64,000 nt of DNA from an uncultured virus (IMG/VR IMGVR_UViG_3300046786_000599) (taxonomy: Duplodnaviria > Heunggongvirae > Uroviricota > Caudoviricetes). The notes beneath the pieces were generated by a model that ran no database searches, was not told the DNA's origin, and saw nothing but the letters and a program-made list of their open reading frames with translations. This document shows positions 15,165-52,646 of the stretch, one piece after another. Position 1 is the stretch's first letter; every line of letters begins with the position of its first letter. Location of the stretch: the IMG/VR virus record IMGVR_UViG_3300046786_000599. One strand, 5' to 3'. Position numbers and translations under genes: made by a program.

Positions 15165-16469
15165 ATGATTACATTAGATAGAAGAAAAGAATTAATCCGT
15201 TCGTTTTTAGAAGAGGTTAAACAGGAAGAATTTGTACCACAATTCTGTCACAACCTAAAATCTAACAAATCCACTGTTTACTATGGCGGACCTCTTTATG
15301 ACGACGATGAACTCGTTGAAGCGATAGATACTTTTTTGTTTGGTAAATGGTTGGCAAGTGGAGACAAGGTTGCTAAATTTGAAAATGAATTTTCCAAAGT
15401 AATAAATCTAAAATATTCATTGATGGTTAATTCTGGAAGTTCTGCTAATTTAGTGATGTTAGCTGCATTTAAGAAGTTCTATAATCTTCAAAACGATGAT
15501 GAAGTAATTATATCTGTTGTTGGTTTCCCAACATCTCTCGCTCCAATAATTCAATGTGGGTTAACCCCTGTATTTGTAGATATTGAATTTGATACTTTGA
15601 ATTTCAATTTGGATGAAGTTTTAAGAAAAATCACAAGTAAGACTAAAGCAATTTTGCTTTCCCCTGTATTAGGAAACCCTCCTGATATGGATAAATTGTT
15701 GGAGATATGTAAAACCTACAATATCCATCTCTTGGTTGATGGATGTGATAGTTTGGGAAGTAAATGGGATGGAAAAAATTTAGCCGAATATGGTGAATTA
15801 GCCAGTTGTTCATTTTATCCAGCACATCATATTACTACAGGTGAAGGCGGCATGGTGTCTTCTAACAACGAAGAACACATAAATCTTGCTAGAAGTTTTG
15901 CCTGGTGGGGGAGAGATTGTTATTGTGTCGGTCAGAACAACCTTCTCAAGAACGGAACTTGTAACTGTAGGTTTAAACAATGGATTGACGAACTTCCTTA
16001 TCCTATCGACCACAAATATTTTTATACTAACGTAGGATATAACCTCAAACCTTTAGATTTGCAGGGAGCCTTGGGTCTTGCTCAGTTGAAGAAACTAGAC
16101 CAAATTCACAACTTAAGAAAGAAGTATAAAGGTGAGATACAGAATATACTATCAATTATAAAGGGAATAAAATTTCCAACTTGGTATCCTAAATCAGAAG
16201 TGAGTTGGTTTGGTGTTCCTGTCATTTGCGATTCGATGGAAATAAAGACTAAGTTAGTAAATTACTTAGAAAATAACAGAATTCAGACAAGAAATTATTT
16301 TGCTGGTAATATTCTTGTTCATCCTGGGTTCAAAGAATATGGGAACTGGAAGGAGTATCCAAATGCCAACCAGGTTCTTGAAAAGGTGTTTTTCATTGGA
16401 TGTTCACCAACTATGACTGAAGAAAACGTTGAATATATTAGAGGCGTTGTTAAAAAATATGAATACTAA
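15165..16469 (+). CDS. rfbH: NDP-4-keto-6-deoxyglucose 3-dehydrase (RfbH/DdhC, E1)
   Basis: VNSGSSANL, SFYPAHHITTGEGG (His at the PLP Lys position), WGRDCYC..TC Fe-S motif, DHKY. Confidence 0.88.
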   Translation: MITLDRRKELIRSFLEEVKQEEFVPQFCHNLKSNKSTVYYGGPLYDDDELVEAIDTFLFGKWLASGDKVAKFENEFSKVINLKYSLMVNSGSSANLVMLAAFKKFYNLQNDDEVIISVVGFPTSLAPIIQCGLTPVFVDIEFDTLNFNLDEVLRKITSKTKAILLSPVLGNPPDMDKLLEICKTYNIHLLVDGCDSLGSKWDGKNLAEYGELASCSFYPAHHITTGEGGMVSSNNEEHINLARSFAWWGRDCYCVGQNNLLKNGTCNCRFKQWIDELPYPIDHKYFYTNVGYNLKPLDLQGALGLAQLKKLDQIHNLRKKYKGEIQNILSIIKGIKFPTWYPKSEVSWFGVPVICDSMEIKTKLVNYLENNRIQTRNYFAGNILVHPGFKEYGNWKEYPNANQVLEKVFFIGCSPTMTEENVEYIRGVVKKYEY

Positions 16470-17394
16470 AGATTTAGTCAAAAAGTGGGAAAAAACAGGA
16501 TTGTTTGATGGTTTAAAAAAAGAAAGTTCTAAAATGGCAATCCTAACCGAATCTCAAAGCAAAAAATTAATGATTGATAAGATTGATGTTTTTGGTTCAA
16601 CAGGATTCATCGGTTCACGATTTTGTGAATTATATTCTGATGAAGTCGTTCGTATTTCTAGGGAATGTAATATTCCTGATAACAAGGATGTTCTCTATTT
16701 GATTTCAACTGTAGATAATTATAACGTATTCACAGACCTTCATGTAGACATCAATACTAATCTAAACAAATTGATGGATGTGTTGGAAAATTGTAAAGAA
16801 AAAGATTTGACGTTTACTTTTGTGAGCAGTTGGTTTGTTTATGGAATATCAACTACAATACCTGTCTCCGAATTTCAACCTTGTTTTCCAAAGGGGTTTT
16901 ATTCCATTACCAAACTTGCTGCTGAACAATTGGTGGAATCGTTTTGTAAAACGTTTAAAGTTAAATACAGAATATTTAGACTTTGTAATGTATATGGCCC
17001 TAATGATAAAGGTAAATCCAAAAAGAAGAATGCTTTACAATATTTGATTGATGAAATGAAGAAAGGAAACGAAATCAATCTTTATCACGGCGGATATTTT
17101 GTAAGAGATTACATGCACGTTGATGATGTTTGTAGAGCGATGAAACTATGTATGGAAAAGGCTCCTACTAATGATGTAATAAATATCGGAAGCGGAGAAT
17201 CTGTAATATTTAAAGATTTGATTGATTTTGTTGCTAACGAAGTTGGTTATAAAGCAAAAATCAACACTGTTGAACCAACAGAGTTTCACAAAATTGTTCA
17301 AGTAAAGGATTTTTGTTTGGATAGTTCTAAATTACAAAAGTTGGGGTTTGAAAAGAAGATTTCTATAAAGGAAGGATTGAGACAATTGTTATGA
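16459..17394 (+). CDS. NAD-dependent sugar epimerase/4-reductase with 37-aa capsid-like N-terminal extension
   Basis: GSTGFIGS, SSWFVYG, YSITK, RDYMHVDD. SDR domain begins at internal ATG 16570. Confidence 0.8.
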   Translation: MNTKDLVKKWEKTGLFDGLKKESSKMAILTESQSKKLMIDKIDVFGSTGFIGSRFCELYSDEVVRISRECNIPDNKDVLYLISTVDNYNVFTDLHVDINTNLNKLMDVLENCKEKDLTFTFVSSWFVYGISTTIPVSEFQPCFPKGFYSITKLAAEQLVESFCKTFKVKYRIFRLCNVYGPNDKGKSKKKNALQYLIDEMKKGNEINLYHGGYFVRDYMHVDDVCRAMKLCMEKAPTNDVINIGSGESVIFKDLIDFVANEVGYKAKINTVEPTEFHKIVQVKDFCLDSSKLQKLGFEKKISIKEGLRQLL

Positions 17395-18245
17395 TTTTAC
17401 TTATAGGTTCAACAGGTTATATTGGAAGTGAATTTACACGTCAACTTACTGAAAATGTAGAGGATTTTCGGACAGTAAGTTATTCAGAGGTTCTAAAAAA
17501 TGGGTTTGAGTCTTATTTAACCGGAGTACGACTTGTGATTAATGCATCTGGATATACAGGAAAACCAAATGTAGATAAGGCAGAAGAAGAAAAAGATAAA
17601 TGTATTCTAGGCAATATTGTAGTTCCGATGAAATTAGTTGAATATTGCAGTAAAAAAGACATATTATATGGACATGTTTCTTCTGGATGTATCTATACAG
17701 GTAGACGTAAAGATGGAAATGGATTTGAAGAAACAGACGAACCAAATTTCACTTTTAAACACAATAATTGTAGTTTTTATAGTGGGACAAAAGCAATGGC
17801 GGAAGATTTGGTAAAATTTTACAGAAACAGTTGGATATGGAGGTTAAGAATACCATTTGACGAAGAAGACGGTCCTAGGAACTATTTAAGTAAATTGTTG
17901 AAGTATAACAAATTAATTGATTATGAAAATTCTATTTCCCACCGCAAAGAATTTGTTACTGCTTGTCTTTTAACAATACAAGAAAACGCACCATTCGGTA
18001 TATATAACGTAGTAAACACAGGAACAATTACTACGAAACAAGTTACAGAATGGATTAATGAATATTTAGATCCAAAAAAAGAGTTTGAATTTTTTGAATC
18101 GGAAGACGTGTTTTACAAAACCGCAGCAAAGGTTCCTCGTTCGAATTGCGTCTTAAGTAACAAAAAATTGTTAAGACTGAAAATTCCTATGAGAAGTGTA
18201 GAGGATGCTATAATTGATTCGCTTAGACATTGGAAAACTGTATGA
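17391..18245 (+). CDS. RmlD-like / NRS-ER bifunctional 3,5-epimerase-4-reductase
   Basis: GSTGYIG, GYTGKPNVD, HVSSGCIY, FYSGTK, WRLRIPF. Confidence 0.8.
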   Translation: MILLIGSTGYIGSEFTRQLTENVEDFRTVSYSEVLKNGFESYLTGVRLVINASGYTGKPNVDKAEEEKDKCILGNIVVPMKLVEYCSKKDILYGHVSSGCIYTGRRKDGNGFEETDEPNFTFKHNNCSFYSGTKAMAEDLVKFYRNSWIWRLRIPFDEEDGPRNYLSKLLKYNKLIDYENSISHRKEFVTACLLTIQENAPFGIYNVVNTGTITTKQVTEWINEYLDPKKEFEFFESEDVFYKTAAKVPRSNCVLSNKKLLRLKIPMRSVEDAIIDSLRHWKTV

Positions 18246-19084
18246 AAGGTATTATATTAGCAGGAGGAAGTGGGAGTCGGTTATATCCACTGACTATATC
18301 ATGTAACAAACAGTTATTACCGGTTTTTGATAAACCGATGATATATTATCCACTTTCTACTCTTATTAAACTTGGCATTCGTGATATACGAATCGTTTCT
18401 AGTTTGGAATATATGCAACGATATGTTCAGTTGTTTCAAACTGGAGAGGATTTGGGGTTAAACATTACATATGCTGTTCAGATGAAACCGAGAGGGCTTC
18501 CGGAAGCATTTATTCTTTCTGAGGATTTAATGGATGAATCAGTTAAAGAAGATATTGTGATGGTTCTTGGCGATAACATTTTTCACGGAAACATTCCTGT
18601 GGTGGATTGTTGTCAAATTTATGCTTATAAAGTTAAGAATCCTTCGGATTATGCTGTTGTAGATTTTGATGAGAACATGAAGGTGACTTCATTAATAGAA
18701 AAGCCTAAAGAACCAAAAACGAGGTATGCTGTTCCGGGTCTTTACAAACTTGATCAACGTTCCGCCAAATTTTCTAAAACGCTTCATCCGTCAGTTAGAC
18801 GTGAATGGGAAATAACAGATTTGTTAAAGTGTTATATTAATAGAAACGAAATGAGTCTGTCTATTCTTGATGAAGGGTTTGTGTGGTTAGATGCTGGTAT
18901 GCCATCTATGCTTTTTCAAGCATCTGCTTATGTTCAAACTATTCAAGAGAGAACAGGTAAGAAGATTGGTTGTATTGAAGAAGATTGTTATAAACATGGT
19001 TTTTTGACAAAAGAAAAGTTAAAGGAATTGCTTTTAAAAATTCCTAAAGGAGAATATAAGGATTATTTGGAGAATTTGTTATGA
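18242..19084 (+). CDS. rmlA: Glucose-1-phosphate thymidylyltransferase
   Basis: MKGIILAGGSGSRLYPLT, KQLLPVFDKPMIYYPLS, LGDNIF, EITD, WLDAG. Confidence 0.93.
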   Translation: MKGIILAGGSGSRLYPLTISCNKQLLPVFDKPMIYYPLSTLIKLGIRDIRIVSSLEYMQRYVQLFQTGEDLGLNITYAVQMKPRGLPEAFILSEDLMDESVKEDIVMVLGDNIFHGNIPVVDCCQIYAYKVKNPSDYAVVDFDENMKVTSLIEKPKEPKTRYAVPGLYKLDQRSAKFSKTLHPSVRREWEITDLLKCYINRNEMSLSILDEGFVWLDAGMPSMLFQASAYVQTIQERTGKKIGCIEEDCYKHGFLTKEKLKELLLKIPKGEYKDYLENLL

Positions 19085-20067
19085 ATATTTTAATTACAGG
19101 TGGATGTGGTTTTATAGGTTCTAACTTTATCAGACGAGTAATTGATAAAGAGGAAATACATAGTATATACAACTTTGACATAACCAATTATGCTTCAAAC
19201 GAATCATATTTATATGATTTAGAAGATCACCACAAATATACTCTTTTTAAAGCAGATATTAGGTCAAAATCCGACGTAATGGAAGTGTTGCGTGAACATT
19301 GGATTAACAAAGTCGTAAATTTTGCTGCTCAAACTCATGTAGATAACTCGATTAAAGATCCAGAATCGTTTGTAACTACAAACGTAAATGGAACGTTTAA
19401 TCTTTTAGAGTGTTGTAGAGAATATTGGGGAGATGAATTGGATTATAAACGGTTTGTTCATGTTTCTACAGATGAAGTTTATGGTGCGTTAGAATTAAAT
19501 GATGAATCATTCACATTAAATACCCCTTACAAGCCTAATTCACCATACTCAGCGACTAAAGCTGCGAGCGACCATCTTTGTAGAGCGTATTCAAAAACCT
19601 TCAATTTTCCTGTTATTGTTACCAATTGTTGTAACAATTATGGACCAAATCAACATTCTGAAAAGCTGATTCCTCTTACAATTAACCGATTGCTTTCTAG
19701 ACAAAATATTCCTGTTTATGGAACTGGTAATAATATTCGCGAATGGATTTATGTAGATGACCACTGCGATGCGATTTGGGAAGTGTTAACAAAGTCTGAG
19801 CCAGGAAAACAATACCTAATTGGAAGCGGATTGGAATTGACTAACTTGGAGTTGGTACAAATGTTGTGTGATTTGTTTGATAAAACCACAAACAGAACCG
19901 TTGGAGAATCCAGAGAATTAATAAAGTTTGTTAAAGACAGACCTGGACACGATTTTAGATATTCAGTAGATTCATCTCAAATTCGAAACGATTTGAACTG
20001 GAATGCAAAAGTGAATTTTGAAGAAGGTTTACAAAAAACTTTAGAATGGTATCTCAAGAAAGTTTAA
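19081..20067 (+). CDS. rmlB: dTDP-glucose 4,6-dehydratase
   Basis: GGCGFIGSNF, AAQTHVDNSI, HVSTDEVYG, PYSATKA, DRPGHDFRY. Confidence 0.95.
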   Translation: MNILITGGCGFIGSNFIRRVIDKEEIHSIYNFDITNYASNESYLYDLEDHHKYTLFKADIRSKSDVMEVLREHWINKVVNFAAQTHVDNSIKDPESFVTTNVNGTFNLLECCREYWGDELDYKRFVHVSTDEVYGALELNDESFTLNTPYKPNSPYSATKAASDHLCRAYSKTFNFPVIVTNCCNNYGPNQHSEKLIPLTINRLLSRQNIPVYGTGNNIREWIYVDDHCDAIWEVLTKSEPGKQYLIGSGLELTNLELVQMLCDLFDKTTNRTVGESRELIKFVKDRPGHDFRYSVDSSQIRNDLNWNAKVNFEEGLQKTLEWYLKKV

Positions 20068-21319
20068 GTTTGTTCAAATACCAATGGTCGTCAGCGTGAA
20101 TTAAATTCTCATTGTAAGATTGTATTTTATTGACGGTGAACGTGAAAATGTCATATTCAAATTCTCCTGGTTCTTTCACTGAATCTTCAACGATAAACAT
20201 CAAGTTTTCAATAAACTGATAATGTTCCTGTCTAAATTCCTCTGCTCTAAACTCAATTAAAATATCGTTATTAAATCCGCCGACTGGTTGTAAAGAACGT
20301 AATTTAGTTCCGATTTTGAAATGAGAAACGGATTCTTCTTGACTTGTGTATTGTTCTTTTGCCCAAACTGGTGTATCAGTATAAATGGTGTCACACCACG
20401 GTTCTAATAAAGGAAGAAGACGATATTGGTTGTGGTGGATGTTATGAATAACAAAACCAACATCATATCTTTTACAAACTCTGGGCATCATCATTTCATC
20501 GTGGAGAACATTCATATGCCACTTCCTCCACCATTCACGAAACTTGATTTGCCTTAATGTAGTATATTCTTCTGAATCCTTAGAACGTTTCCACACCTTA
20601 CCTCCACCAACAGGTATTTCTTGTATAATGTTTACACCATCTTTAAACCTACTTCCTCTACAAGTCATGTGATAAACAAACGCATCTCTTGCTTGAACAA
20701 ATTGATAGCCAGCGAGTTTGAATCGGTTGAATAAATCGGAATCTTCCAGTTCCATTGGAGCAAAAACTCGTTTATCGTGACCGCCTATAGACAACAAATC
20801 TTCAACATACATTATCCAAGGAGCAAAGATTCCAGCTGTAGTTTTGTCTTTATTAGCCGTTTCTTGTTGTGAAACAAATTCAAGAAACTGTTTCATTTGA
20901 AACTCTTCTGGTTCCAAACCAAAATTTTCTACATATTTCTCGGGCCCAGGCGGATGTAACGGCGGTTCAATTCTTGTTCCGGAAACTACTGTTCCTCTTT
21001 TGACATGTTTCATCATGTTTTTAAGATAGTTTGGTGTAGCTACCATATCCGCGTGGAAGATGCCAAACACTTCGTTGGACGCCATTTTCGCCCCTTGGTC
21101 ATACAGCACAGTATGCCCAACACGGTCTGGTCCAGTATTTCTATATACCTTTACGTGAACGTCTTTTAACGAGCACATCCACTCCCACGTTCCATCTGTA
21201 GAAGCATCATCTAGTAGAATTACCTCTACATCATTGCCTAAATGTGTTCTGATGCTGTTATAAGCAAACTTTACATATTTGAGGTTATTACGTGACGGTA
21301 TAACTAATGTGACATTCAT
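20054..21319 (-). CDS. Glycosyltransferase family 2
   Basis: VIPSRNN, LDDASTDGT, HADM, EDSDLFNR. Confidence 0.85.
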   Translation of the reverse strand: MNVTLVIPSRNNLKYVKFAYNSIRTHLGNDVEVILLDDASTDGTWEWMCSLKDVHVKVYRNTGPDRVGHTVLYDQGAKMASNEVFGIFHADMVATPNYLKNMMKHVKRGTVVSGTRIEPPLHPPGPEKYVENFGLEPEEFQMKQFLEFVSQQETANKDKTTAGIFAPWIMYVEDLLSIGGHDKRVFAPMELEDSDLFNRFKLAGYQFVQARDAFVYHMTCRGSRFKDGVNIIQEIPVGGGKVWKRSKDSEEYTTLRQIKFREWWRKWHMNVLHDEMMMPRVCKRYDVGFVIHNIHHNQYRLLPLLEPWCDTIYTDTPVWAKEQYTSQEESVSHFKIGTKLRSLQPVGGFNNDILIEFRAEEFRQEHYQFIENLMFIVEDSVKEPGEFEYDIFTFTVNKIQSYNENLIHADDHWYLNKLKLS

Positions 21320-21744
21320 ATATTTTTAAGCAATTCGCTTGAAGAGTGTATTTTCGGTTGACCTAAAAGAACGTAATGAATGTTTAAATTTTTGCACACA
21401 AGTTGTTCTTCGGAAACTACTGTTGTTGCAACTCTATCTCCGCTGTTAAAAAATGCCATTTTTGCATTTGGCCATAAAGACCTAATATATTTTAATGTTT
21501 CACATTGATGTTTATCTTTGTCGATGGAAATCAAGGAATATTCTACGCCTTTGATGCTATGCATGATATTAGCTCTATGACGGTCATCCATGAATGGTTT
21601 TGATTGTTTAAGTTTAACTTGATAATCGTTATTTACTACAACCACTAATTTATCGCATTTTTCTTTAGCCCCATTTATATACTCGATGTGACCAAAGTGA
21701 AGTGGGTTAAAATAGCCGGACACAATTCCTATTTCGTATTCCAT
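21316..21744 (-). CDS. Cytidylyltransferase-like protein (RfaE/TagD-like, HxGH)
   Basis: SGYFNPLHFGHIEY, VVVVNND, NSGDR, HSSS. Confidence 0.85.
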   Translation of the reverse strand: MEYEIGIVSGYFNPLHFGHIEYINGAKEKCDKLVVVVNNDYQVKLKQSKPFMDDRHRANIMHSIKGVEYSLISIDKDKHQCETLKYIRSLWPNAKMAFFNSGDRVATTVVSEEQLVCKNLNIHYVLLGQPKIHSSSELLKNI

Positions 21745-21745
21745 A

Positions 21746-22705
21746 TTATGATGAAAAAACTTCTGCAACCCCTTGATTTTCAAACTCAAAAGGCATTATA
21801 CTGTTTTTAAAATGTTCTTTTATCTTTATAGCAGTGTTTGGGTCTGAAATTGATAAAACAAATCCACAACCGCCGCTTCCTAAAAGTTTTGATCCATATG
21901 CTCCCATATCCATTACTGTGTCTACTATTTCATCAACTTTTTCCGTAGAAATCAAGTTAGAAATATTTCTTTTTTCTAACCAAGATTGGTAAAGTAATGT
22001 TCCTATATTTTTAATATCTTCGTTTAAAAAATAAGTATATGCTTGTTTAGATATATCCAAAATTTCTTTTTTGTTTTTGTTTTCGTGAGACTTAGCAATA
22101 TTGTTTTGATTTCTTTGATTGTTGGTATAAACTAAAACCAAAGAACGTTGAAGTTCTTCTTTAAACTCGCTTGTAACCGGAAGAGGTTTAACTAGAAAAT
22201 CTCCGTTTGGTTTAATTTCTACAGTGTTTAAACCGCCATAAGAAGGCCAAATTTGATCTTGAATTCCACCAGCTTCATTTAGAATATTTCTTTCTATTTT
22301 AATAGCATCCAACGCTAACTGTTTATCTGTAGTAGGTTTGTTTTTGAAAACTTTATCAATCAGATAAAGCATACCTACACAAAATGAACTTGAACCTCCA
22401 AGACCAACTCTTGAAGGTATATCCGAAAAAGATGTAAACTCAATAGGGTCTTGTATCTGTCTATATTTTAATACTTCTCTGATCAGAGGATTTTCTATTT
22501 CATCCCACGATTTTACAGTTTGTAATTTTGAATATGAAATAATGCTTTCCGGAGTAAGAATTTTTGGACGTTTTCGCATACATAGATAAACGAATTTATC
22601 TATGGTAGTTCCTATTAAAAGAGAACCGTGTTCTTGGTAGAATTCTTTGTAATCAGTAGAACCTCCAAAAAACGATACTCTGAATGGTGATTTGACAATA
22701 TACAT
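21746..22705 (-). CDS. GHMP sugar kinase (HddA-like heptose-7-phosphate kinase)
   Basis: PFRVSFFGGSTD, GLGGSSS, GIQDQ, KLLGSGGCGF. Confidence 0.88.
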   Translation of the reverse strand: MYIVKSPFRVSFFGGSTDYKEFYQEHGSLLIGTTIDKFVYLCMRKRPKILTPESIISYSKLQTVKSWDEIENPLIREVLKYRQIQDPIEFTSFSDIPSRVGLGGSSSFCVGMLYLIDKVFKNKPTTDKQLALDAIKIERNILNEAGGIQDQIWPSYGGLNTVEIKPNGDFLVKPLPVTSEFKEELQRSLVLVYTNNQRNQNNIAKSHENKNKKEILDISKQAYTYFLNEDIKNIGTLLYQSWLEKRNISNLISTEKVDEIVDTVMDMGAYGSKLLGSGGCGFVLSISDPNTAIKIKEHFKNSIMPFEFENQGVAEVFSS

Positions 22706-23082
22706 TAATCGCCTTTAACTATTCTATAAGAATCGTCCTCAAAATGTTCAGTAGAAATCTCAATCAGTTCGCCTCCTGTAAGAGAAAACATTTGATGCCT
22801 TAAACCTACAGGAATTTCAATTACGTCGCCTGGATAAACAACTAATTCTTTGGCATTGTCACAATCATCATCCCAACTCAACTTGATAATAAAATCGCCT
22901 TTCAAAACATAAAAATGTTCGGTTTTTTTCTTGTGGTAATGAAAAGAACACTTTTTATCTTTTTCAAAATGAAGTATTTTACCACAATATTTTTCGTTAT
23001 TAGTTAACCATAATTCATATCCCCAACCTTTCGGGTGGTGTTCTGGACTAGTAGTGAAGAAGTTTATATTTTTACTTTTCAT
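22705..23082 (-). CDS. Cupin protein (mannose-6-phosphate isomerase-like)
   Basis: PKGWGYE, SFHYHKKKTEHFYV, EISTEHFEDDSYR. Confidence 0.8.
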   Translation of the reverse strand: MKSKNINFFTTSPEHHPKGWGYELWLTNNEKYCGKILHFEKDKKCSFHYHKKKTEHFYVLKGDFIIKLSWDDDCDNAKELVVYPGDVIEIPVGLRHQMFSLTGGELIEISTEHFEDDSYRIVKGD

Positions 23083-23605
23083 TATAATAATCTCCCCATT
23101 CAACTATAACTGATGACCTATAACCGAAATAAGCTGTTCTATAAATATCAAATATCCAATCCGGTTCATCTAACCTAACCACGTTAATGTTTGGACACAT
23201 TAATTTAATCGTATTTGTATAATCCCCAACATGTTGATGTTGAGGATGCAATGGTCTTTCAGAACCAATCGCAACTCTTATAATAACTTTTGGCTTATAT
23301 GGATTGTCTGCCATTAATTGAATTTTATCCAAATGGTTTACAAGTTGGTTTGTTGCCAATAAAAAGAAATTCCATCTTGGGAAAATAGATATTGGAACGG
23401 TTTTGCCATCCAATGCCATTCCAATAGACATCCCCATTTGCATGTCTTCACAAACAGGCATTTCCCACAATTTTTCTGAAGGAACTTCTTTTAACGTGTT
23501 GGTCATAGCCGTCCCGGCATACTGTACTGCCTGCCCCAGAAAAAAAGTATCTGATTGTTGTCCTAACCACGTCATTGACCTTTTTAGTTCTTCTGCGTAT
23601 TTCAT
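23072..23605 (-). CDS. TPP-dependent enzyme beta subunit (pyrimidine-binding domain only)
   Basis: FLGQAV, EMPVCEDMQMGMSIGMAL, QLVNHLDK, QHVGDYT. Confidence 0.82.
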   Translation of the reverse strand: MKYAEELKRSMTWLGQQSDTFFLGQAVQYAGTAMTNTLKEVPSEKLWEMPVCEDMQMGMSIGMALDGKTVPISIFPRWNFFLLATNQLVNHLDKIQLMADNPYKPKVIIRVAIGSERPLHPQHQHVGDYTNTIKLMCPNINVVRLDEPDWIFDIYRTAYFGYRSSVIVEWGDYYNEK

Positions 23606-23925
23606 AAAGTATCTTCAAAGCTAATTTTATAAATGCCAATTCCATAGGGCGTTTCAAGAAGGGTTTGAATTTTAACTATTTTGTAAATTTCATTTTCTGG
23701 GTTATTAGAAATGTAAATTTCATTTTTTATGTCTTTTGGTTCGTCTATGTCTAATATTCTGAATTTTTCTCCTACCGAGGGTTTACCATGTATTGATAAT
23801 ATTAAACTAATAAATCCTATTCTGTCTTTAGAAACATAAGTTCGACCAATGTATCCCGCTTTAATTCCAGGACATTCATTCGATGCTATTACATCATATG
23901 TTTTATTTTCAATTTTGAATTTCAT
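23602..23925 (-). CDS. Hypothetical protein
   Basis: 107-aa ORF with ATGA overlaps on both sides. Confidence 0.55.
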   Translation of the reverse strand: MKFKIENKTYDVIASNECPGIKAGYIGRTYVSKDRIGFISLILSIHGKPSVGEKFRILDIDEPKDIKNEIYISNNPENEIYKIVKIQTLLETPYGIGIYKISFEDTL

Positions 23926-24545: not shown

Positions 24546-24588
24546 GTTTATAAGTATCAACTTAAAATTGTATTCTTCACCCAAAGTG

Positions 24589-26375: not shown

Positions 26376-26376
26376 A

Positions 26377-28237: not shown

Positions 28238-28238
28238 A

Positions 28239-30242: not shown

Positions 30243-30250
30243 ATAATAGT

Positions 30251-31201: not shown

Positions 31202-31204
31202 ATT

Positions 31205-37282: not shown

Positions 37283-37296
37283 AGTGTGACTACTTT

Positions 37297-37325: not shown

Positions 37326-37327
37326 TT

Positions 37328-44469: not shown

Positions 44470-44795
44470 ATGTTATTTGTAATATATTTGTCTCCAATAA
44501 CAGATGGCATCTTTATAACACAAGTAATTGTATCAGTCAACGGAATAAAATCGGTAGATTCTCCTTTTTCTATAAAAACAACATCTCCTTCGTTTTTGAG
44601 GTTTCCGTTCATTAAAGCAGATCCCTTTACTATTACAGTTATTTCTGTAGCAACTTTATGATGATGAGAAGATTCTGACTGTCCAACATTATAGTGTTTT
44701 ATTGCTACTTCAAAATCCTTAGTATAAAGAATGGAAGGAAAGAAATCTCCAATAAACCAACCGCCTTTATAATCTGATAATTTAGACGTTTCCAT
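44466..44795 (-). CDS. Cupin protein
   Basis: GWFIGDFFPS, HHHKVATEIT, KMPSVIGDKY. Confidence 0.75.
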   Translation of the reverse strand: METSKLSDYKGGWFIGDFFPSILYTKDFEVAIKHYNVGQSESSHHHKVATEITVIVKGSALMNGNLKNEGDVVFIEKGESTDFIPLTDTITCVIKMPSVIGDKYITNNI

Positions 44796-46152
44796 AATTT
44801 TTGATAAAGTAATCTAAATCTTCTGGAGTTCCAAGACCCCACATTTTGTCAACGTTGAAGATTTTTGTTTTTTTTCCGTCTTGAATGGCTTCATTGTAAA
44901 CTGGACAAACATAAAATTCGTTGTTTATACGAATGTTCTTGGAAATCATTTGTTCGGCATATTTTACATAATCAGATCCACGTTTCCAGTAATAAACACC
45001 TACAGTTGCCACATTACTAATAACTTCTTTTTCACGAACTTCTGTAACAAAACCATTTGCGTCTTGTTTTACATAACTCCATTTAGGATGGGTATTTGGA
45101 AAAGTTAGAATCCCACCATCAATTTGATCACCGATCATTGAATACATGAATTCATTGCTATCCCATTCTACAAACTGGTCTGAATTAGCTATAAGTAACG
45201 GTTCATTGTTGTCAATGTATTCTTTAGCTAATAAAGTTGTACATGCTGCTCCTTCTGTGAGGTGGTCTACTTGAACAATTTTACAGTTGGGTGTAATAAG
45301 ATTGAGAAGTTGCTTAAGGTTATACTTCTCATAATGTTCTTTTCTTACAATGTAAATGTGTTCGGCATCAATGTTGATATTTTCTATAACAACTTGAATC
45401 ATAGGTTTACCTTTAACATCTATTAAAGGTTTGGGAAAAGTATAACCAGCTTTTTCAAACCTACTTCCAGCACCTGCCATCGGAACTAAAACTTTCATTT
45501 TTCCTCCTTGCCATTTTGGTCTAATCTGTCGGTTGTCAATCATCGAAATATAATCAATCAACGAATCGAACTTTACATCATTGGAATCTTTAACTCCAAA
45601 AAGATATGCTCCGCTGTTTAAAGCCGCTTTCCTTCCAATATGTGAGTCTTCTACAATAACGGTTTCTTTTGGATCAACCTCAGCTTTAAGCATACAACGA
45701 AGATACATCTCTGTAGCTGGTTTTGGATTTTTTACATCTTGGTTAGAATAGAAAAAATCAACATATTCCATGAACCCTTTAGTCATCAACATCATTTTAA
45801 CGGTTTCACGAATAGAATTAGAAGCTACAGCTATTTTATAACCCAAAGAACGGAGTTCGCTTAGAACTGAAACTAAACGTTCGTCTTTATTGAATCTTTT
45901 GATAATTTCAAGTGTTTTCTCTTGTTTTAACCTCCACACTTCATCGTGTTTTGACTTTGGAAGACCTTTTTCCTGAGTCAACATGTTAAGCTTTTTAGTA
46001 GTATTTAATCCATCATATTTGGATAGATGTTCTTCTCTTGAAATAACATATTTTGGATCAATGGATTTTAAAGCAAGATTAAGAGCTTCGTAATGAAGCT
46101 CCTTTGCGTCTACAAGTACGCCATCTAAATCAAATATAATTAGTTTAATCAT
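44782..46152 (-). CDS. HAD phosphatase - sugar nucleotidyltransferase fusion
   Basis: FDLDGVL, ASNS, KP, EDS; then PMAGAGSRF..PKPLI, TEGAACT, NSDQ, NNEFYVCP, LGTPEDL. Confidence 0.9.
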   Translation of the reverse strand: MIKLIIFDLDGVLVDAKELHYEALNLALKSIDPKYVISREEHLSKYDGLNTTKKLNMLTQEKGLPKSKHDEVWRLKQEKTLEIIKRFNKDERLVSVLSELRSLGYKIAVASNSIRETVKMMLMTKGFMEYVDFFYSNQDVKNPKPATEMYLRCMLKAEVDPKETVIVEDSHIGRKAALNSGAYLFGVKDSNDVKFDSLIDYISMIDNRQIRPKWQGGKMKVLVPMAGAGSRFEKAGYTFPKPLIDVKGKPMIQVVIENINIDAEHIYIVRKEHYEKYNLKQLLNLITPNCKIVQVDHLTEGAACTTLLAKEYIDNNEPLLIANSDQFVEWDSNEFMYSMIGDQIDGGILTFPNTHPKWSYVKQDANGFVTEVREKEVISNVATVGVYYWKRGSDYVKYAEQMISKNIRINNEFYVCPVYNEAIQDGKKTKIFNVDKMWGLGTPEDLDYFIKNYGNV

Positions 46153-46982
46153 ATTTCTAATACAGGCTGTTCCATGAAATGAAAATGACAAATTCCACAT
46201 TCTGTAAAGAATATGTTCTTGTGACTGGAATCAGAAATTCGATTGAAAATTATAGTTTGAAGAAGTTTTTTATAACTATCCTTACTGATTAGATGTTTGC
46301 ATTTTAGGTTATTTCTTAAAACACAATCTCTCAACACAATTTCACAAAGTAAATATTTATATTCAACTTGTGTTTTGTTGTTATTGTAATTTGGATCGTT
46401 AATACATTTATTATACAAATCTTCAAACCACTTATCTTCACACAAACAATCTATATCAGATTTAATTACAAAAAAGTTGGTTTGTGGGAAAAAATATTCA
46501 TATCCATTATCTTTAAAAGAGTTTACAGCTAAATCTGCATCTAGTTTATAGTAACTATCCATTCCTGTATATCCATGTCCTTGAACAAAGAAAAACTCAG
46601 AGTCATCCATTTCGACATCAAAAATATTTTCGTTTATTAAAACATCGTTGGTAGACTTCCAAGCCCATTTATATCCCATGTGTTTTGATTGAAACAAAAC
46701 GGTTTTATCTAAATCAGTAAATCCAAAAGTATGCCCATAGTTTTTTCTATTTATCATTATACATTTGTCTCCAAAATGTTTGAGCCAAATGTTGTTGTAA
46801 TCGTTTATGAATCGTTGAGATACATTTTCAGTTCTAGTATGAGCAACTATAACTTTTGGAAACTGAGATATAATAGGAAGGTTGTGTAAAACGTAACGTT
46901 CTAGATTTTCAATATCATCTATCTTTGTAATACATCCTATTGAACAATAGGCAGATTCGTTTATAACATCCTTTAATTTCAT
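46149..46982 (-). CDS. Hypothetical glycan-locus protein (possible glycosyltransferase)
   Basis: NYGHTFGFTDLD, KSTNDV, PQTNFF; translationally coupled within the island. Confidence 0.5.
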   Translation of the reverse strand: MKLKDVINESAYCSIGCITKIDDIENLERYVLHNLPIISQFPKVIVAHTRTENVSQRFINDYNNIWLKHFGDKCIMINRKNYGHTFGFTDLDKTVLFQSKHMGYKWAWKSTNDVLINENIFDVEMDDSEFFFVQGHGYTGMDSYYKLDADLAVNSFKDNGYEYFFPQTNFFVIKSDIDCLCEDKWFEDLYNKCINDPNYNNNKTQVEYKYLLCEIVLRDCVLRNNLKCKHLISKDSYKKLLQTIIFNRISDSSHKNIFFTECGICHFHFMEQPVLEI

Positions 46983-47656
46983 TTTGGTAAATTAAACCCC
47001 CAGTTTTCTTCTTTAGTGAAGTTTGAATTATATCTGAGGTTTGTTTCTATCTGTTTTTCTATAGTTTTATCGTGATACAATGCTAGTTCTTCGTCAAACG
47101 GTAGATAAACGTAACTTGTATTACCTCCTATACGTTCGTGAAGTCTACCAACCCATTTGATTCTATTAGGTATGTTTTTAAACAATCTGCCTTGAGGGTC
47201 TGGCCAATTTATAATGGGTCTTTTATAAGTTGACGATTCAGTTAATCTCCACCCCCACTGTTTAGCATGTTCAGTGGTTACTCCTTTGAAATCATTTATT
47301 CTCGGAAGCCAAAACACTTCTATAGTTGGATTGGCTTCTATAATATCTTTAATGTTTTCCAAAAGAGCTTCAGTAGGATTTTCATCACCGTCTATCTGAA
47401 ATATATAATCTCCCGAACATTTTGATGATCCCCAGTTTTTGTGTTCAGAATAGTTGTTGTTTAAGTTGTGTTCATAAACATAAACATGTGTTGGACCAGA
47501 TGTCCAATTATACAAAATACGGTATGTTTCTTTTGTCGGATTGTCTGCTACAATTACAACCTCGTCATTATCGCCTAAAAACTTATCTAATCTAGAAAGC
47601 AAGTTGTCTAGAGTAGTTGTTTCGTCGTGACACGTAATTAAATAACTCAGTTTCAT
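46979..47656 (-). CDS. Glycosyltransferase family 2
   Basis: HKNWG..CSGDYIFQIDGDE, WPDPQGRLF, LHERI. Confidence 0.85.
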   Translation of the reverse strand: MKLSYLITCHDETTTLDNLLSRLDKFLGDNDEVVIVADNPTKETYRILYNWTSGPTHVYVYEHNLNNNYSEHKNWGSSKCSGDYIFQIDGDENPTEALLENIKDIIEANPTIEVFWLPRINDFKGVTTEHAKQWGWRLTESSTYKRPIINWPDPQGRLFKNIPNRIKWVGRLHERIGGNTSYVYLPFDEELALYHDKTIEKQIETNLRYNSNFTKEENWGFNLPK

Positions 47657-48963
47657 CCTGCTTTAGGTAAGGTGATTTTCTTCAACTTTGGAAGGTTAAT
47701 AGTTTGTTGTACAGCCATCTTTGGAACAATTCTATCTAACATTGTATGAAACACTTTATCCATCTCTTGAATAGAAAATTTAACTTCATTAACTTTTCTT
47801 AGTTCTTCCGATTTAACCAAATAAGAATCGTAATGTTCATAAACTGTCTTCATTACTTCACCAGCCGCTGCGTAGTTTACATTAAACCAGCCCGATTCTT
47901 TAACAAACCATTCATTTACCGCTTCTCCCGGAATTTGTTTAAGTTCTCCTGGAAGTAACCTACAAAGTTTTGGATCCAAGAAATCAAGATGACCACTCCA
48001 ATTAGGAGCGAGAAGAGGTTTGCCACTCAATGTGGAAAGGAGAAGAGGATGTCCAAACCCCTCTCCATGAGTAAAGGAAACGTGAACCTTTACCTTTTCA
48101 TGGTTATATAGAGCATTCATTTCTTCATCGGTAAACTCGCCGTGAAGAATATAAATTTTAGGATTTTCTGGCTTTTCACCACCTAATCCATCAATGATTG
48201 ACTTAAGTTTTCCAATACAATCATATTTGTCAATTTTACAGAGAGCGGCACCGCTAGTCTTTAAAATCAAAGCAGGTTTTGATGCTTCTGGATAACCACG
48301 GAATGTTTCAATAAACGTCTTAATTAACATTCCTATGTCTTTTCTGTCAGCATTGATGTTGTTTGCTGTCCACTGTCCAACAAAGAGATAACAGAAGTTT
48401 TCTTTGATTTTAGACATGTGTTTTTCAAGATTTTCGTTTTTAACGTCGGTCTTCTTAAACACATTTGTATTAGCTCCCCAAAATAAAACTTCACATGGTT
48501 TGTCTAATTTAAGAAGTTCTTTTCTCCCATCATTAAAGTTTTTGGTGTAATTGGCTTGTTGAAAGATTTTTTGTGCATGAACAGATGTAGCAATGTTAAA
48601 ATTCATTCTATTCAATCCTTCAATCCAAGGACCTGCCGCAATAGTGCTTTCAATACCAGCAGTCATTCCAATGTTAAACTTCCCAACTGGTTGAAACTCG
48701 TTTGGAATTGTACAGTGAATAAAAATATCAGGCTGTCTATTGAGTTGTTGTTGAAGGATTTTCGGAATTAAGGCTTGGGTTTCAGCATCCTTATCCAAAT
48801 CGGATTGTAGGTTTTTCTTACTGCAATGCCCCCATCTTGTAGGAACAAGCATTAAGTCAAATTTATCATATCGCAATAAGGATTTAGCGACTGTTTCTGC
48901 CCAGTCACCGTACCCAGAACGAGTCCAACATGGGGACTGAAATACACAAAGAGGCTTACTCAT
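47653..48963 (-). CDS. Glycosyltransferase family 4-like
   Basis: TRSGYG, RKDIGMLI, THGEGFGHPLL, WSGHLDF. Confidence 0.85.
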   Translation of the reverse strand: MSKPLCVFQSPCWTRSGYGDWAETVAKSLLRYDKFDLMLVPTRWGHCSKKNLQSDLDKDAETQALIPKILQQQLNRQPDIFIHCTIPNEFQPVGKFNIGMTAGIESTIAAGPWIEGLNRMNFNIATSVHAQKIFQQANYTKNFNDGRKELLKLDKPCEVLFWGANTNVFKKTDVKNENLEKHMSKIKENFCYLFVGQWTANNINADRKDIGMLIKTFIETFRGYPEASKPALILKTSGAALCKIDKYDCIGKLKSIIDGLGGEKPENPKIYILHGEFTDEEMNALYNHEKVKVHVSFTHGEGFGHPLLLSTLSGKPLLAPNWSGHLDFLDPKLCRLLPGELKQIPGEAVNEWFVKESGWFNVNYAAAGEVMKTVYEHYDSYLVKSEELRKVNEVKFSIQEMDKVFHTMLDRIVPKMAVQQTINLPKLKKITLPKAG

Positions 48964-49850
48964 ACGTTATAAATCCTTTCTAATACGTCAGTTACATTAA
49001 TTTCATCTTCCCAAATTCTCATAAGTTTATATCCTTTTTTATTTGCTAAATTGTCTTTATATCTATCATTTTTCCACCGTCTCGACTGTTGTTCGTCCAT
49101 ATCGTCTAATTTTACATTTTTACTATGCCAATAACAACCATCAACTTCTATTATTAAGTTATTTTTTGGTATATACAAGTCAAAAATTTTATTTTCTAAT
49201 ACAAATGGAGAAATAAATTCTATATTGTGTTTTTTTAAAATATTTTTAATTTTAATCTCAGGAACGGTATTAATTCCGTGTAATCCACCATCATTCCAAA
49301 ATTTTATTAATCTTTCTGTGGTCGCTTTTCTGAGTTTTTCAATTGTTTCTTCGGAATGTTTTTTTCCATAAAAATGATTTTTGTCTCCTGTCATTTTTTC
49401 AGACATATGTTTTCTACTGTTTGGATTATTCCATCTAATGTATCTTCCAGTTTCCAAACTATTCAAATGAAACTGTTTTGTTTCATCGTTAATAGAATTC
49501 CAATAATCCTTTTTTATTTCAGACTGTAACTTTTTAAACTTATCAAATTCCGTTTTGTTTTGTTTTAACAAACTCATTTGCCGTCTACAATTCTCCGACA
49601 TCTTCTGTTTCACTTCAGGCTTTGACATTTCCATTTTAATTTTTTCTATAACTACTGGATTATCCATTGCCATTTTTGTTTTTTCGCTTATTAACTTGCG
49701 TTGTTCTTCTGTCCGTTTTCTGCCTTTGCGAGTTTCGTTAGCACAATTATAACACAAAGCATTTGTTCTATTTCCCCTATTCCAGTTACAACGATTGGAA
49801 TAGGGGATTTCGGTATTACAGTTTGGGCAACTTCTTTTCCACATATTCAT
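48960..49850 (-). mobile_element. Homing endonuclease-like protein (Zn ribbon + NUMOD3 + Vsr/DUF559)
   Basis: WKRSCPNC, NHFYGKKHSEETIEKLR, FDLYIP..IIEVDGCYWH, RIWE. Confidence 0.8.
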
Positions 49851-50010: not shown

Positions 50011-50277
50011 TCATTGTTTTACTTTTTCTAATTTAATAGAAGATATATTCGAAAGTGGAATAAATTTTATATCAAGGATATTTGTTGTCGAATCTGTAAA
50101 GTATCCACCTTGTTTTTTTATATCAGAAACAAACTCGCATAAAATATTAAAACAAATCATATCATATTCAACGTCGTTGAGAGAATTATAATTTATAAGC
50201 GGATTTCGACGATTATCGATGTCTTCGTCTGTTATATATTTAATCAGGTCTATTTTTTTATCTTTTGGTTTACTCAT
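50011..50277 (-). CDS. Hypothetical protein
   Basis: 88-aa ORF with ATGA coupling. Confidence 0.5.
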   Translation of the reverse strand: MSKPKDKKIDLIKYITDEDIDNRRNPLINYNSLNDVEYDMICFNILCEFVSDIKKQGGYFTDSTTNILDIKFIPLSNISSIKLEKVKQ

Positions 50278-50495
50278 ATCATTATTTCTTTTGGTTCTAC
50301 TTTAAATTCTTTTTTTAAGTAATCATACATTTCTTTGACACAAACATCACAGAGATGTACTTTAATTTGATTCATATCAAAAATACTACCATACCAACTA
50401 ATCAATTGTAGCTCGGAAAAACATTCTCTCCCAGGATGTTTATCGCATAAAAACCTAGACTCTTCTGGTTGGTATTTTTGAGTTACTTCTTTCAT
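50274..50495 (-). CDS. Small putative Zn-binding protein
   Basis: CDKH..C, YGSIFD, HLCDVC. Confidence 0.6.
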   Translation of the reverse strand: MKEVTQKYQPEESRFLCDKHPGRECFSELQLISWYGSIFDMNQIKVHLCDVCVKEMYDYLKKEFKVEPKEIMI

Positions 50496-51136
50496 ACGCC
50501 TACTTCTCGTTTTTTAATCTGTTCACTATATCGTTCTTTAACAGGAACTCCCCCTGCTTCGTTATACATGTCTGCTAACGACTTTCCTGATATAATCCGA
50601 GAAACTTCTTGTTTTGGTTGAGTTTTGGTTTTATCGGTTGATCCGAATCCACCTTCACCACGTTTGGTTTTAGTCAAATCGTCTACCAACTCGAAATCAA
50701 CCAAAACTGTTGGTTCAAAAACTAACTGAGCAATAGTATCACCTTTTTTGTAGATTTTATTATAATTAACATTTCCCAAGATTCCTGTTGAGAATGGGTA
50801 TTTTAAATCTTCCGGTTGCCAAATATATTTGAATCTACAAATGACCATTCCTCGATAATCGTTGTCAATAAGCCCAATACTGTTCGATAGAACAAGATTA
50901 TACTTGCTAACGGATGATCGTGGATGAATAAGGGTATGAAACGTCATTGCTTCAGGAGCAATGAAAAGATTCGTCTCGTATTCGATATAATCTATTCTTT
51001 TCCAAAGAGTGCCTTCCGATTCTCCAACAATCTTTGGATCGGAAGTAGCAATAATATCATATCCAGCAGATACTTCCGATGCTTTTTTGGGTAAAGTAAG
51101 ACCTTCTATTTTTTTAACGTAGATTTTCATAACCAT
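50492..51136 (-). CDS. dut: Trimeric dUTPase with C-terminal extension
   Basis: SAGYDI, PRSSVS, GLIDNDYRG, IAQLV, RGEGGFGST. Confidence 0.93.
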   Translation of the reverse strand: MVMKIYVKKIEGLTLPKKASEVSAGYDIIATSDPKIVGESEGTLWKRIDYIEYETNLFIAPEAMTFHTLIHPRSSVSKYNLVLSNSIGLIDNDYRGMVICRFKYIWQPEDLKYPFSTGILGNVNYNKIYKKGDTIAQLVFEPTVLVDFELVDDLTKTKRGEGGFGSTDKTKTQPKQEVSRIISGKSLADMYNEAGGVPVKERYSEQIKKREVGV

Positions 51137-51152
51137 TGTAATTAACTACAGT

Positions 51153-52646
51153 TTACAACTTGGCTATAGTAGATTCAATTTTTTTGTTAATTTTATCCAA
51201 ATCTATTTTCGGTAAAGTAAATCCCATTTCTTTATTTGGCATCTGATTTCCAATATAATCCGTGGAAGTCACAAGTTCGATTGAGCTCGCTGGTTTCCAT
51301 TTAGAAAAACAATGATCCATAGCTGCTACAAACTGGTTACACATATTTTCAGCATTTAAGCCGCCGTCGCCCAACGCCCATTCACGTCCTTTAAATCCAC
51401 ACAGTTCTCTCTGTTCCTTCGGCATGACATACCAATACATCATAGCTTCTGCTAACTCCTCCCATGTAGAAAGGTCGTCAAGAATATATGGTGTTGGAAT
51501 CGAACCTTGAATATATCTTGCTGTTGGGAATAATGGATAAGACCATACACCGTGAGTCTTATATTTGCCATCAAAATTAGATCCCCACTTTAGGTCGAAA
51601 ACAGGAGGTTTACCATTTTCATCAACAAACCCCATCTGATCTTGAAGACCGCCTGTAACTGTTGCAATAACAGGAGTTCCACATATGATGGATTCAGCAA
51701 TTGAAAGTCCAAATCCTTCATTTGATGAAATGTTGATGGTAACATCAGCGATGTTATAAAGACACGACATGTCTTCTGGAAGGATTTTAGCAGTAGAAAA
51801 CACAATGTCATAATCAGGACAAAGAGCTTCTTTAACCGCCATCAAATCGGTTCCGGCATCACATCTAACTTCGGTGTGAAGAATTAGACAACACTCTTTG
51901 GCTTCCTCTTTGGGAAGGTTATCACAGAAGTTTCTATAAGCTAGAATAATATTCGATGGACGCTTACGGTGAACGTTACGGCTGTTAAACAACATTACAA
52001 ACTTATAGTCTTTTCCAGACAGAAACTCTTTTCTCCTCTGAACAAGTCGAGCATCCGTAACAGGCAATGGTTGAAAAACTTTGTGGTTAATTCCATGAGG
52101 TACGTAATGAATTAACGTTTTGTCATGAATTTCCGAGTCGTTTACTGTACAAACCCTATCTTCTCCTAAAACCTGCTTATTTATATTGTAAGTTTGTTTG
52201 CTAATAGACATTAACACATCACAAGATTCGTAAAATGGCCGATTATACATTGGATATGGCAAATCATCCCAAATGTTAAGGTAAGTCAACGGAACCTTAG
52301 CTCTAACTTGTTTTTCAATCAAATATAACCAAGTCCAAAAACGGGGATCAGTGAAATGAAGAACAGCATCAGGCTTCTCCATATTCATGATTGCAAACAA
52401 TGTATCTTCGTCGCCGTAACCGTCTACAGGGTAAAGTTTTACGTAACAATCGTTTCTGCCCAACATCTTGTTAGTTGCATCCGACATATCAGCAATCTTG
52501 CCTTTGTCAGGATGGGTTATAGCACCTGCTATTTGAACCCAATCGTATCTGTCTGCTGTTCCTAGAACGAGTTCACGTCCCATTGTAGCAATACCTGAAT
52601 GCATTCTTATATCATCAGCCAATAATAATATTTTCTTTTTTGCCAT
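51153..52646 (-). CDS. Glycosyltransferase family 4
   Basis: HSGIAT, VPHGIN, RNVHRK, SSNEGFGLSIAES..GTPVI..TGGLQDQ. Confidence 0.88.
   Translation of the reverse strand: MAKKKILLLADDIRMHSGIATMGRELVLGTADRYDWVQIAGAITHPDKGKIADMSDATNKMLGRNDCYVKLYPVDGYGDEDTLFAIMNMEKPDAVLHFTDPRFWTWLYLIEKQVRAKVPLTYLNIWDDLPYPMYNRPFYESCDVLMSISKQTYNINKQVLGEDRVCTVNDSEIHDKTLIHYVPHGINHKVFQPLPVTDARLVQRRKEFLSGKDYKFVMLFNSRNVHRKRPSNIILAYRNFCDNLPKEEAKECCLILHTEVRCDAGTDLMAVKEALCPDYDIVFSTAKILPEDMSCLYNIADVTINISSNEGFGLSIAESIICGTPVIATVTGGLQDQMGFVDENGKPPVFDLKWGSNFDGKYKTHGVWSYPLFPTARYIQGSIPTPYILDDLSTWEELAEAMMYWYVMPKEQRELCGFKGREWALGDGGLNAENMCNQFVAAMDHCFSKWKPASSIELVTSTDYIGNQMPNKEMGFTLPKIDLDKINKKIESTIAKL

Follow-up and report, generated by a model that had tools for sequence, protein, structure and literature searches.

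The 64,000-nucleotide stretch analyzed here, referred to below as the window, belongs to the uncultured virus IMGVR_UViG_3300046786_000599 (Caudoviricetes), a large phage from an aquatic source, and contains a long cluster of glycan-related genes. Between positions 15159 and 52646, 43 open reading frames (ORFs) form two convergent blocks, 5 on the plus strand (15165 to 20067) and 38 on the minus strand (20054 to 52646), and 40 of the 42 gaps between them are overlaps or measure 30 bp or less. Scans covered 73 window ORFs with Pfam, 71 with PHROG, and 44 with NCBIfam. About 37 of the 43 cluster ORFs are glycan related; the other six are a dUTPase gene, two endonuclease genes, and three small ORFs. 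The flanking genes are T4-like and encode DnaB, a class II-type ribonucleotide reductase, a clamp loader, a deoxynucleoside monophosphate kinase, PolB, and homing endonucleases (Pfam, PHROG). An earlier note on this DNA had described about 40 tightly coupled genes, embedded among T4-like replication genes and interrupted by phage endonucleases, and that description was borne out, the interruptions being ORFs 23922 to 24584 and 48960 to 49850.

Three glycosyltransferase (GT) genes make up the conserved core at the start of the minus-strand operon. The first, GT4a (51153 to 52646, minus strand; PF00534), encodes a GT-B glycosyltransferase with an intact EX7E motif (predicted local distance difference test [pLDDT] of the model, 84), which we propose to be the priming enzyme; its best PDB profile match is chlorovirus B736L (E 1.2e-12). 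The second, GT4b (47653 to 48963, minus strand; phrog_2170, E 5e-14; B736L, E 4.8e-4), encodes a GT-B protein that is the predicted partner of GT4a and in which, in the window, the second Glu of EX7E is replaced by Leu (residues about 301 to 309). The third core enzyme is a short, conserved GT2 (46979 to 47656, minus strand; PF00535, E 1.9e-14). Leu or Ile was found at the second Glu position of GT4b in 14 of 14 records with a DUF1360-like gene (see below), and Glu was found in 11 of 11 records without one. The substitution may point to a different nucleotide donor or to a noncatalytic partner, or it may just mark two subgroups; given this last option, a functional coupling of the EX7L form of GT4b with the DUF1360-like gene was not accepted.

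The cluster, whose relatives include Immutovirus, Mel-JY01, and RM378, is a member of a lineage-wide operon that starts with GT4a, GT4b, and GT2, continues with a hypervariable middle part, and often ends with another GT2. At least 7977 of 8000 scored candidates are related to GT4a at E values of ≤1e-20, and among 50,697 phage records GT4a matches 7 (four Immuto records, Mel-JY01, RM378, and LR756508). In a set of 84 loci (4 plus the best 80 of 587, some of them near-duplicates and many partial), GT4b was the best match of 73 ORFs and the short GT2 was that of 63, and the order was fixed: GT4a, then GT4b and the short GT2. The genes behind them vary between phages. The combination of core and variable island was seen in these 84 loci and in 20 extended records. 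From GT4a to the far end, the operon spans 37.8 kb here versus 10.8 to 25.8 kb (median, 17.5 kb) in 22 records, a comparison limited to records whose contig does not end inside the island and thus without the related contig G001; the island in the window is the longest version among those measured. The core travels with the virion lineage, since the named records nearest by the major capsid protein of G003, a complete 365-kb phage record, are also those nearest by GT4a. Immuto, Mel-JY01, and RM378 share a GT4a orthologue with the window (49%, 46%, and 27%, respectively). Immuto also shares the order PD-(D/E)XK nuclease gene, small gene, GT4a, GT4b, short GT2, variable genes, and long GT2, although its operon spans 10.8 kb, whereas all that RM378 retains is GT4a and a second, very distant GT-B gene.

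Structure prediction supports a GT4a-GT4b heterodimer. The pair received a complex score of 0.88, versus 0.00 for the best of three controls; of 157 solved complexes, 116 reach the mark applied to this score, as do 2 of 215 mismatched pairs, counts that are only roughly valid for the alignments used. At least 95% of the contacts agreed between model runs, with a partner pLDDT of at least 87, and in the modeled interface the C-terminal tail of GT4a (residues 454 to 466) packs on residues 269 to 277 of GT4b. Likeness to a solved GT-B pair could have produced the pass, although none of the solved matches exceeds about 20% identity.

A cellular or chimeric origin of the contig was ruled out by collinearity with related phages and by bridging contigs. 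The flanks of the window are collinear with G003, and G001 has 28 of the cluster genes in the same order, at 46 to 88% identity, up to the end of its contig. Contigs from four studies cover 29 to 30 of 30 bins across positions 12001 to 32000 and span the transition from the replication flank into RfbH as well as the junction between the plus and minus strand blocks; this junction (20054 to 20067) is bridged by contigs of X7 and X12. Across 12001 to 32000, the contig is therefore that of a phage and is not chimeric. In contigs of the X3 and X12 runs, position 23605 is joined directly to 24604; these two runs lack the endonuclease insertion that here separates the genes for the alpha and beta subunits of a thiamine pyrophosphate (TPP)-dependent enzyme.

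Between the core and the far end, the minus-strand operon carries three variable islands. Island I (41826 to 46982) comprises candidate GT 46149, a HAD-nucleotidyltransferase fusion (44782), a cupin (44466), a DUF8361 protein (43741 to 44469), candidate GT 42800, and a GT-B protein (41826). Island II (36488 to 41829) consists of a GT2-GT11 fusion (40312), a DUF268 protein (39590), a CgeB-like GT (38793), candidate GT 38131, a GT10 (37328), and candidate GT 36488. In island III (28239 to 36503), a small ORF (36006), a nucleotidyltransferase (35191), ORF 34347, and a GDP-sugar dehydratase/reductase (33393) are followed by a CgeB-like GT (32506), two B12-binding radical S-adenosylmethionine (SAM) enzymes (31205 and 28239), and a short-chain dehydrogenase/reductase (SDR) epimerase (30251). 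Library matches (Pfam, PHROG, NCBIfam) confirmed that the GT2, GT4, GT10, GT11, and CgeB-like (PF13524) families and nucleotide-sugar enzymes listed in the earlier note are represented, GT matches being found in 8 ORFs with 9 domains (51153, 47653, 46979, 40312, 38793, 37328, 32506, and 20054). ORF 41826 to 42803 is a ninth supported GT by its predicted GT-B fold (pLDDT, 90). The former count of 13 to 15 GT-like ORFs thus corresponds to 9 supported GTs plus 6 candidates, with 15 as a ceiling: ORFs 46149, 42800, 38131, and 36488 have DxD-like motifs and no library match, ORF 43741 belongs to DUF8361, and ORF 34347, the NodZ-like ORF of the earlier note, is a weak lead to a GT11 domain (HHalign probability, 29%; E 6e-4). 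For six unlabeled ORFs, Pfam scans of homologues, HHalign, and a PDB search yielded nothing firm.

The remaining genes of the cluster suggest a set of sugars. A plus-strand, inverted nucleotide-sugar block (15165 to 20067; Pfam, NCBIfam) encodes an RfbH/E1-type 3-dehydratase, an SDR, and RmlD-like, RmlA-like, and RmlB proteins, of which RmlB scores above its cutoff; the RmlA/B/D-like genes would yield a dTDP-6-deoxyhexose, as inferred from sequence. The RfbH-like enzyme reaches 390 bits versus a cutoff of 423 (NCBIfam), with the His and Cys motif present. On the minus strand, a probable branched dideoxy-sugar module (23072 to 28318; Pfam, NCBIfam) comprises an aldo-keto reductase (27326), an Fcl-like SDR (26377), a ColD-type 3-dehydratase (25197; best PDB matches ColD/WbdK, E 2e-48), and TPP E1-alpha (24589) and E1-beta (23072) subunits. 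In both pyridoxal phosphate (PLP) enzymes, His replaces the aminotransferase Lys; since one matches RfbH and the other ColD/WbdK, and both are of the His type, we infer two routes to 3,6-dideoxy sugars. The combination of AviB1/B2 and Pau7 logic makes C4-hydroxyethyl-branched sugars such as yersiniose, according to PMC4753412, and by the same logic the split TPP E1 alpha/beta pair and the aldo-keto reductase probably lead to a C4-branched 3,6-dideoxy sugar. A further set for heptose/sugar activation (21316 to 23103, minus strand) encodes a cupin (22705), an HddA-like GHMP kinase (21746), and an HldE-type nucleotidyltransferase (21316), all scoring below equivalog cutoffs. Together with an SDR of the cluster that is nearest to RMD and GDP-heptose 4,6-dehydratase, the kinase and the nucleotidyltransferase suggest a GDP-heptose pathway, and the two B12 radical SAM enzymes suggest methylation.

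At its far end, the minus-strand operon finishes with a long, semiconserved GT2 (20054 to 21319; PF00535), which was matched in 25 of 32 related records (near full length in 16) and not in the complete G003. Beyond the plus-strand block, at 14806 to 15138 on the minus strand, lies a gene for a DUF1360-like small membrane protein (110 amino acids; CPxC motif; two to three predicted helices; Atlas, 0.94; weak PF07098 matches in homologues), found at the cluster end in 14 of 32 related records; GtrA identity was rejected for this protein, its family resemblance being to DUF1360. This gene and the branched-sugar genes had been overlooked in the earlier note, whose assertion that no multipass membrane protein is present holds inside the cluster and fails 26 bp outside its start. 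A 98-amino-acid, Cys-rich protein (14508 to 14804, minus strand; no family match) is encoded next to the DUF1360-like gene here and in relatives, and the two (14508 to 15138) may act together in redox chemistry or metal binding, with no connection to glycans. The inverted rfbH/rml genes occupy the equivalent position in G003 and in another relative, G016. Separately, the 26 bp that separate the DUF1360-like gene from the divergently oriented rfbH gene contain a palindromic TATATATA (15142 to 15149) that could drive expression of the inverted block.

Several elements of the locus are not themselves glycan genes. The operon is headed by a ribbon-helix-helix (RHH) gene (52659 to 52862, minus strand; Pfam RHH_3, weak, E 0.0026), a probable autoregulator that is the best match of 69 ORFs in the 84 loci and usually directly precedes GT4a; a TATATGTA element lies upstream of it at 52891. 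At window positions 52865 to 52915 and at the corresponding sites of many relatives, the RHH gene is preceded by short inverted repeats, which are candidate operators for autoregulation. A dUTPase gene (PF00692) and two small ORFs (50011 to 51136, minus strand) are inserted in the operon, the dUTPase gene also sitting between GT4a and GT4b in many relatives, and a NUMOD3/DUF559 homing endonuclease gene follows (48960 to 49850, minus strand; Pfam, PHROG). The TPP alpha and beta genes are separated by a mobile insertion (23602 to 24584, minus strand; phrog_3322) that holds an HNH-type endonuclease gene and a 107-amino-acid ORF. In several relatives (L004, L052, L053, and L084), an insertion that bears an endonuclease gene, probably an intron, interrupts GT4a. 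On the other side of the cluster, a Mom-family gene and two DruA-like genes (5328 to 6101, 11004 to 12215, and 13769 to 14515), kept in G003, represent a separate candidate DNA modification set, and a MoxR-like AAA ATPase gene followed by a 768-amino-acid ORF with a vWA-like DxSxS motif, noted by eye (6912 to 10175), is conserved in G003 and in the complete record G012.

With regard to function, we consider it fairly probable that the cluster directs cytoplasmic, lipid-carrier-free O-glycosylation of virion fibers, working in a GtfA/B-like manner while lying outside that family. The GT4a-GT4b pair, with the short GT2, would act in the cytoplasm and prime phage proteins at Ser/Thr residues, the acceptors most plausibly being Ser/Thr-rich repeat fiber and decoration proteins such as those seen in relatives. 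The island GTs would then lengthen the chain from nucleotide sugars made on site (a dTDP-6-deoxyhexose, 3,6-dideoxy sugars, a C4-hydroxyethyl-branched sugar, and heptose, along with methyl groups), and the glycan would be released at lysis as part of the virion, which would make an exporter unnecessary. Swapping of islands, in response to selection by receptors, grazers, or proteases, might alter the virion "serotype." We favor a protein target because of the Ser/Thr-rich repeats and Aah/TibC enzymes in relatives and the predicted GT4 dimer.

Windows of at least 45% Ser/Thr account for 1118 to 2461 residues per 100,000 in six of seven core-bearing genomes; the seventh, RM378, which has the GT4 pair and no island, has none. 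Among the controls, PA5oct has 0, W06 has 0, T4 has 277, and XacN1 has 2744. Of 24 Ser/Thr-rich proteins, five of the GTSGSS type (tail fiber) and the Immuto spike have tail PHROG matches, partly through the repeats, and the structural-gene motif TATTTATA was found with 8 of 37 Ser/Thr-rich ORFs versus 71 of 1021 others (Fisher P = 0.004). A tblastn search with one serine-rich protein of G003 matched no named phage. Aah/TibC protein O-heptosyltransferases (TIGR04414) scored above the cutoff in 4 of 38 records, all of them core bearing. In G012, the gene belongs to a second glycan cluster directly before the terminase-portal-capsid genes (260 to 269 kb; L138:13186 to L139:3383), which also encodes a GT4-FkbM protein, a DegT-like protein, an acetyltransferase, and a DUF8361-like methyltransferase fusion. 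In Mel-JY01, it is an FkbM-TibC fusion gene that stands between Ser-rich ORFs, one of which, two genes before the fusion, is an 805-amino-acid GTSGSS-repeat ORF with a tail fiber PHROG match (L146:635-3052, plus strand); the annotation of the record at this place is instead a minus-strand hypothetical protein.

A number of observations weigh against this reading. No acceptor gene was found in the window, all acceptor evidence coming from relatives, and TIGR04414 had no match in the 44 window ORFs scanned and none in the subgroup of the window. Most of the serine-aromatic repeat proteins of the closer relatives G003 and G015 have no PHROG match, so that their virion location is a prediction, and in three relatives neither the major capsid protein nor the tube protein has a Ser/Thr-rich C-terminal extension. 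Among the controls, XacN1 has the highest Ser/Thr-rich count (Thr-Pro repeats; annotated GT9) and yet lacks the core, and W06 has GT4/GT2 genes and no Ser/Thr-rich proteins. Finally, the operon lies among replication genes, and the exact late motif, present upstream of the operon in Immuto, was absent from all 45 of the other upstream regions; TATATGTA is present in 20 of those 45, as in the window. As a side observation, the cultured jumbo phage XacN1 (L175 to L185) encodes, together with its GT9, roughly 12 long proteins with mucin-like Thr-Pro repeats and is an independent candidate for virion O-glycosylation.

The link of the core to B736L also carries caveats. B736L is 16 to 18% identical to GT4a and GT4b, and its activity is unproven according to PMC9614988; in structure comparison, MshA, BshA, and sucrose-phosphate synthase score level with it (Z 29 to 30). 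The structural tie of GT4a with these small-molecule GT4 enzymes, along with a weak, below-cutoff GT4-conflict match of GT4a, would suit another acceptor altogether (host proteins, a small glycoside, or a glycolipid, serving antidefense or host takeover and not a virion coat), as would the derivation of the AviB1/B2-type and aldo-keto reductase genes from antibiotic sugar pathways. Nine or more GTs imply an oligosaccharide chain, however, the O-antigen-like turnover of the middle part suggests an exposed structure, and no aglycone synthase gene was found in the cluster (Pfam, NCBIfam), which leaves such an acceptor improbable.

The placement among replication genes would also suit expression before assembly and, hence, remodeling of the host surface, in which soluble GTs, acting at the inner membrane face, would add sugars to the lipid A-core of the host or to one of its lipid-linked intermediates, as in lipooligosaccharide (LOS) outer-core loci. 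Host MsbA/Lpt or Wzx would then export the product, which would block superinfection or grazing, and the DUF1360-like protein could anchor the enzymes. In agreement with the earlier note, the Pfam and NCBIfam scans detected no Wzx, Wzy, Wzz, ABC exporter, WbaP, or WecA in the cluster, in which no ORF has more than one 19-residue segment with a Kyte-Doolittle value above 1.6 (the top value, 1.67, being that of the PLP enzyme RfbH); the initiating transferase, flippase, polymerase, and exporter of a Wzx/Wzy or ABC O-antigen or capsule locus are thus not found here. Searches of five long relatives were equally negative for WbaP (PF02397), WecA (PF00953), and Wzx (PF01943), while the same searches were positive in 9, 12, and 13 of 14 bacteria and archaea, respectively. 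In G003, G012, and Immuto, 15 of the 18 multihelix ORFs (three long, tape-measure-like ORFs being left out) showed no exporter family above the cutoff, and as to GtrABC features, only weak GtrB-like PHROG matches appeared, on GT2s without membrane helices. Soluble LOS-type GTs, however, need no dedicated flippase, polymerase, or initiating transferase, and LOS-type loci rely on host export. Consequently, the missing exporters, which the earlier note had taken as an argument for a virion target, do not separate a virion target from a host surface target.

Host surface remodeling further draws on sugars that are typical of O-antigen epitopes (RfbH, ColD, yersiniose-like), on the small membrane gene that closes the operon in 14 of 32 records, and on weak SMR/EamA-like proteins of 112 amino acids encoded elsewhere in G003 and Immuto, and cyanophage GT clusters have been interpreted in this way in PMC12801897. 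On the other hand, the core is common to phages with different recorded hosts (Flavobacterium, Rhodothermus, and Microcystis), whose surface glycans should differ. Moreover, the membrane gene, DUF1360-like and not GtrA, was not found in 18 of the 32 records (many of them fragments), including Immuto, Mel-JY01, and the complete G012; the SMR-like proteins of G003 and Immuto do not align with each other; and no Kdo or lipid A-core enzyme was matched in the window (Pfam, NCBIfam). On balance, we regard remodeling of the host surface as rather unlikely.

The earlier note had proposed a glycan built in the cytoplasm on either virion proteins or DNA. While virion proteins are the better supported of the two, glycosylation of a modified base as a protection against restriction now seems very unlikely. 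It would agree with an operon that is embedded, with dUTPase and PD-(D/E)XK nuclease genes, among replication genes and with the GT-B fold of ORF 41826, whose top Foldseek match is the T4 alpha-glucosyltransferase (E 1.3e-9), but BshA and others match about equally well (E 1.6e-9 to 4e-9). Immuto, furthermore, has GT4a, GT4b, both GT2s, and a homologue of ORF 41826, yet no glycosylated nucleoside has been reported: in the portion of the report available (bioRxiv 10.1101/2023.04.13.536721), liquid chromatography-UV-tandem mass spectrometry of Immuto 2-6A DNA revealed dA, dC, dT, and fdPreQ1 only, an analysis that low-level or digestion-resistant adducts could escape. No hydroxymethylase or TET/JBP match was found in the window (Pfam, PHROG), and PF12851 (TET/JBP) was positive in none of five long relatives, in a search whose control was likewise positive nowhere. 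A hypervariable chain of many sugars would also exceed what restriction evasion needs.

For the favored glycosylation of virion fibers, a close model is GtfA/GtfB of streptococci and lactobacilli, a two-protein priming complex that, with variable extending enzymes, glycosylates serine-rich repeats (PMC6973325). The likeness would lie in a GT pair (predicted here), variable extending GTs, putative Ser/Thr-rich acceptors (in relatives), and the lack of a lipid carrier. However, no DUF1975 domain, GtfA/GtfB model match (Pfam/NCBIfam to E 0.01/0.1), or accessory Sec system was found here, and the putative acceptor is unlinked, which makes GtfA/GtfB a working analogy only. Giant viruses likewise employ soluble GTs, their own nucleotide-sugar pathways, and clade-variable clusters, for Megavirinae fibrils and the chlorovirus capsid (PMC9614988), whereas the present case is a tailed bacterial phage. 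Although the cluster is large, as the earlier note had emphasized in likening its scale to that of giant viruses, it is not unprecedented: the glycosylation cluster of Tupanvirus has 33 genes in 49 kb (PMC9614988), and the cultured cyanophage S-SCSM2R has 13 GTs in an "LPS" cluster that, like those of S-SCSM1 and P-SSM2, was taken as host surface modification (PMC12801897). Moraphages have four core GT groups (PMC12619734). Like the present phage, these cyanophages and moraphages are large, aquatic, and T4-like and encode many GTs and epimerases, but GT4a did not match S-SCSM2R, S-SCSM1, or P-SSM2. In mycobacteriophage Che8, phage GTs and glycosylated structural proteins have been described (Freeman 2023, as cited in PMC11256854 and PMC12619734); few GTs are involved there, versus dozens of genes and dedicated rare sugars here, and the capsid and tube C termini of relatives of the present phage show no obvious acceptor extension.

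A literature search yielded no functional test of the operon in Immuto, Mel-JY01, or RM378 and no paper on Mel-JY01; likewise, in a search that mostly did not extend to subscription papers, no description was found of the core-plus-island layout, the GT4 heterodimer, or its target. New with this window are the longest island measured, the branched-sugar module, and the predicted dimer. Tentatively, and with some reservation, we picture a very widespread lineage of large tailed phages in which a virus-specific GT4 heterodimer, kin to B736L, would prime Ser-rich virion fibers while an O-antigen-like cassette swaps the outer sugars to create "serotypes," the present phage wearing a methylated, C4-branched dideoxy-sugar glycan made by about 37 genes. 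The specific enzyme pair, its interface, and candidate acceptors can now be named, and the island is a source of soluble GTs and rare-sugar enzymes. If the proposed glycosylation is correct, the long-unexplained "LPS" clusters of big phages would become testable, with the cultured phages Immuto 2-6A and Mel-JY01 carrying the same core, and glycan-coated virions would be a core trait of abundant large aquatic phages and not a quirk of a few actinophages.

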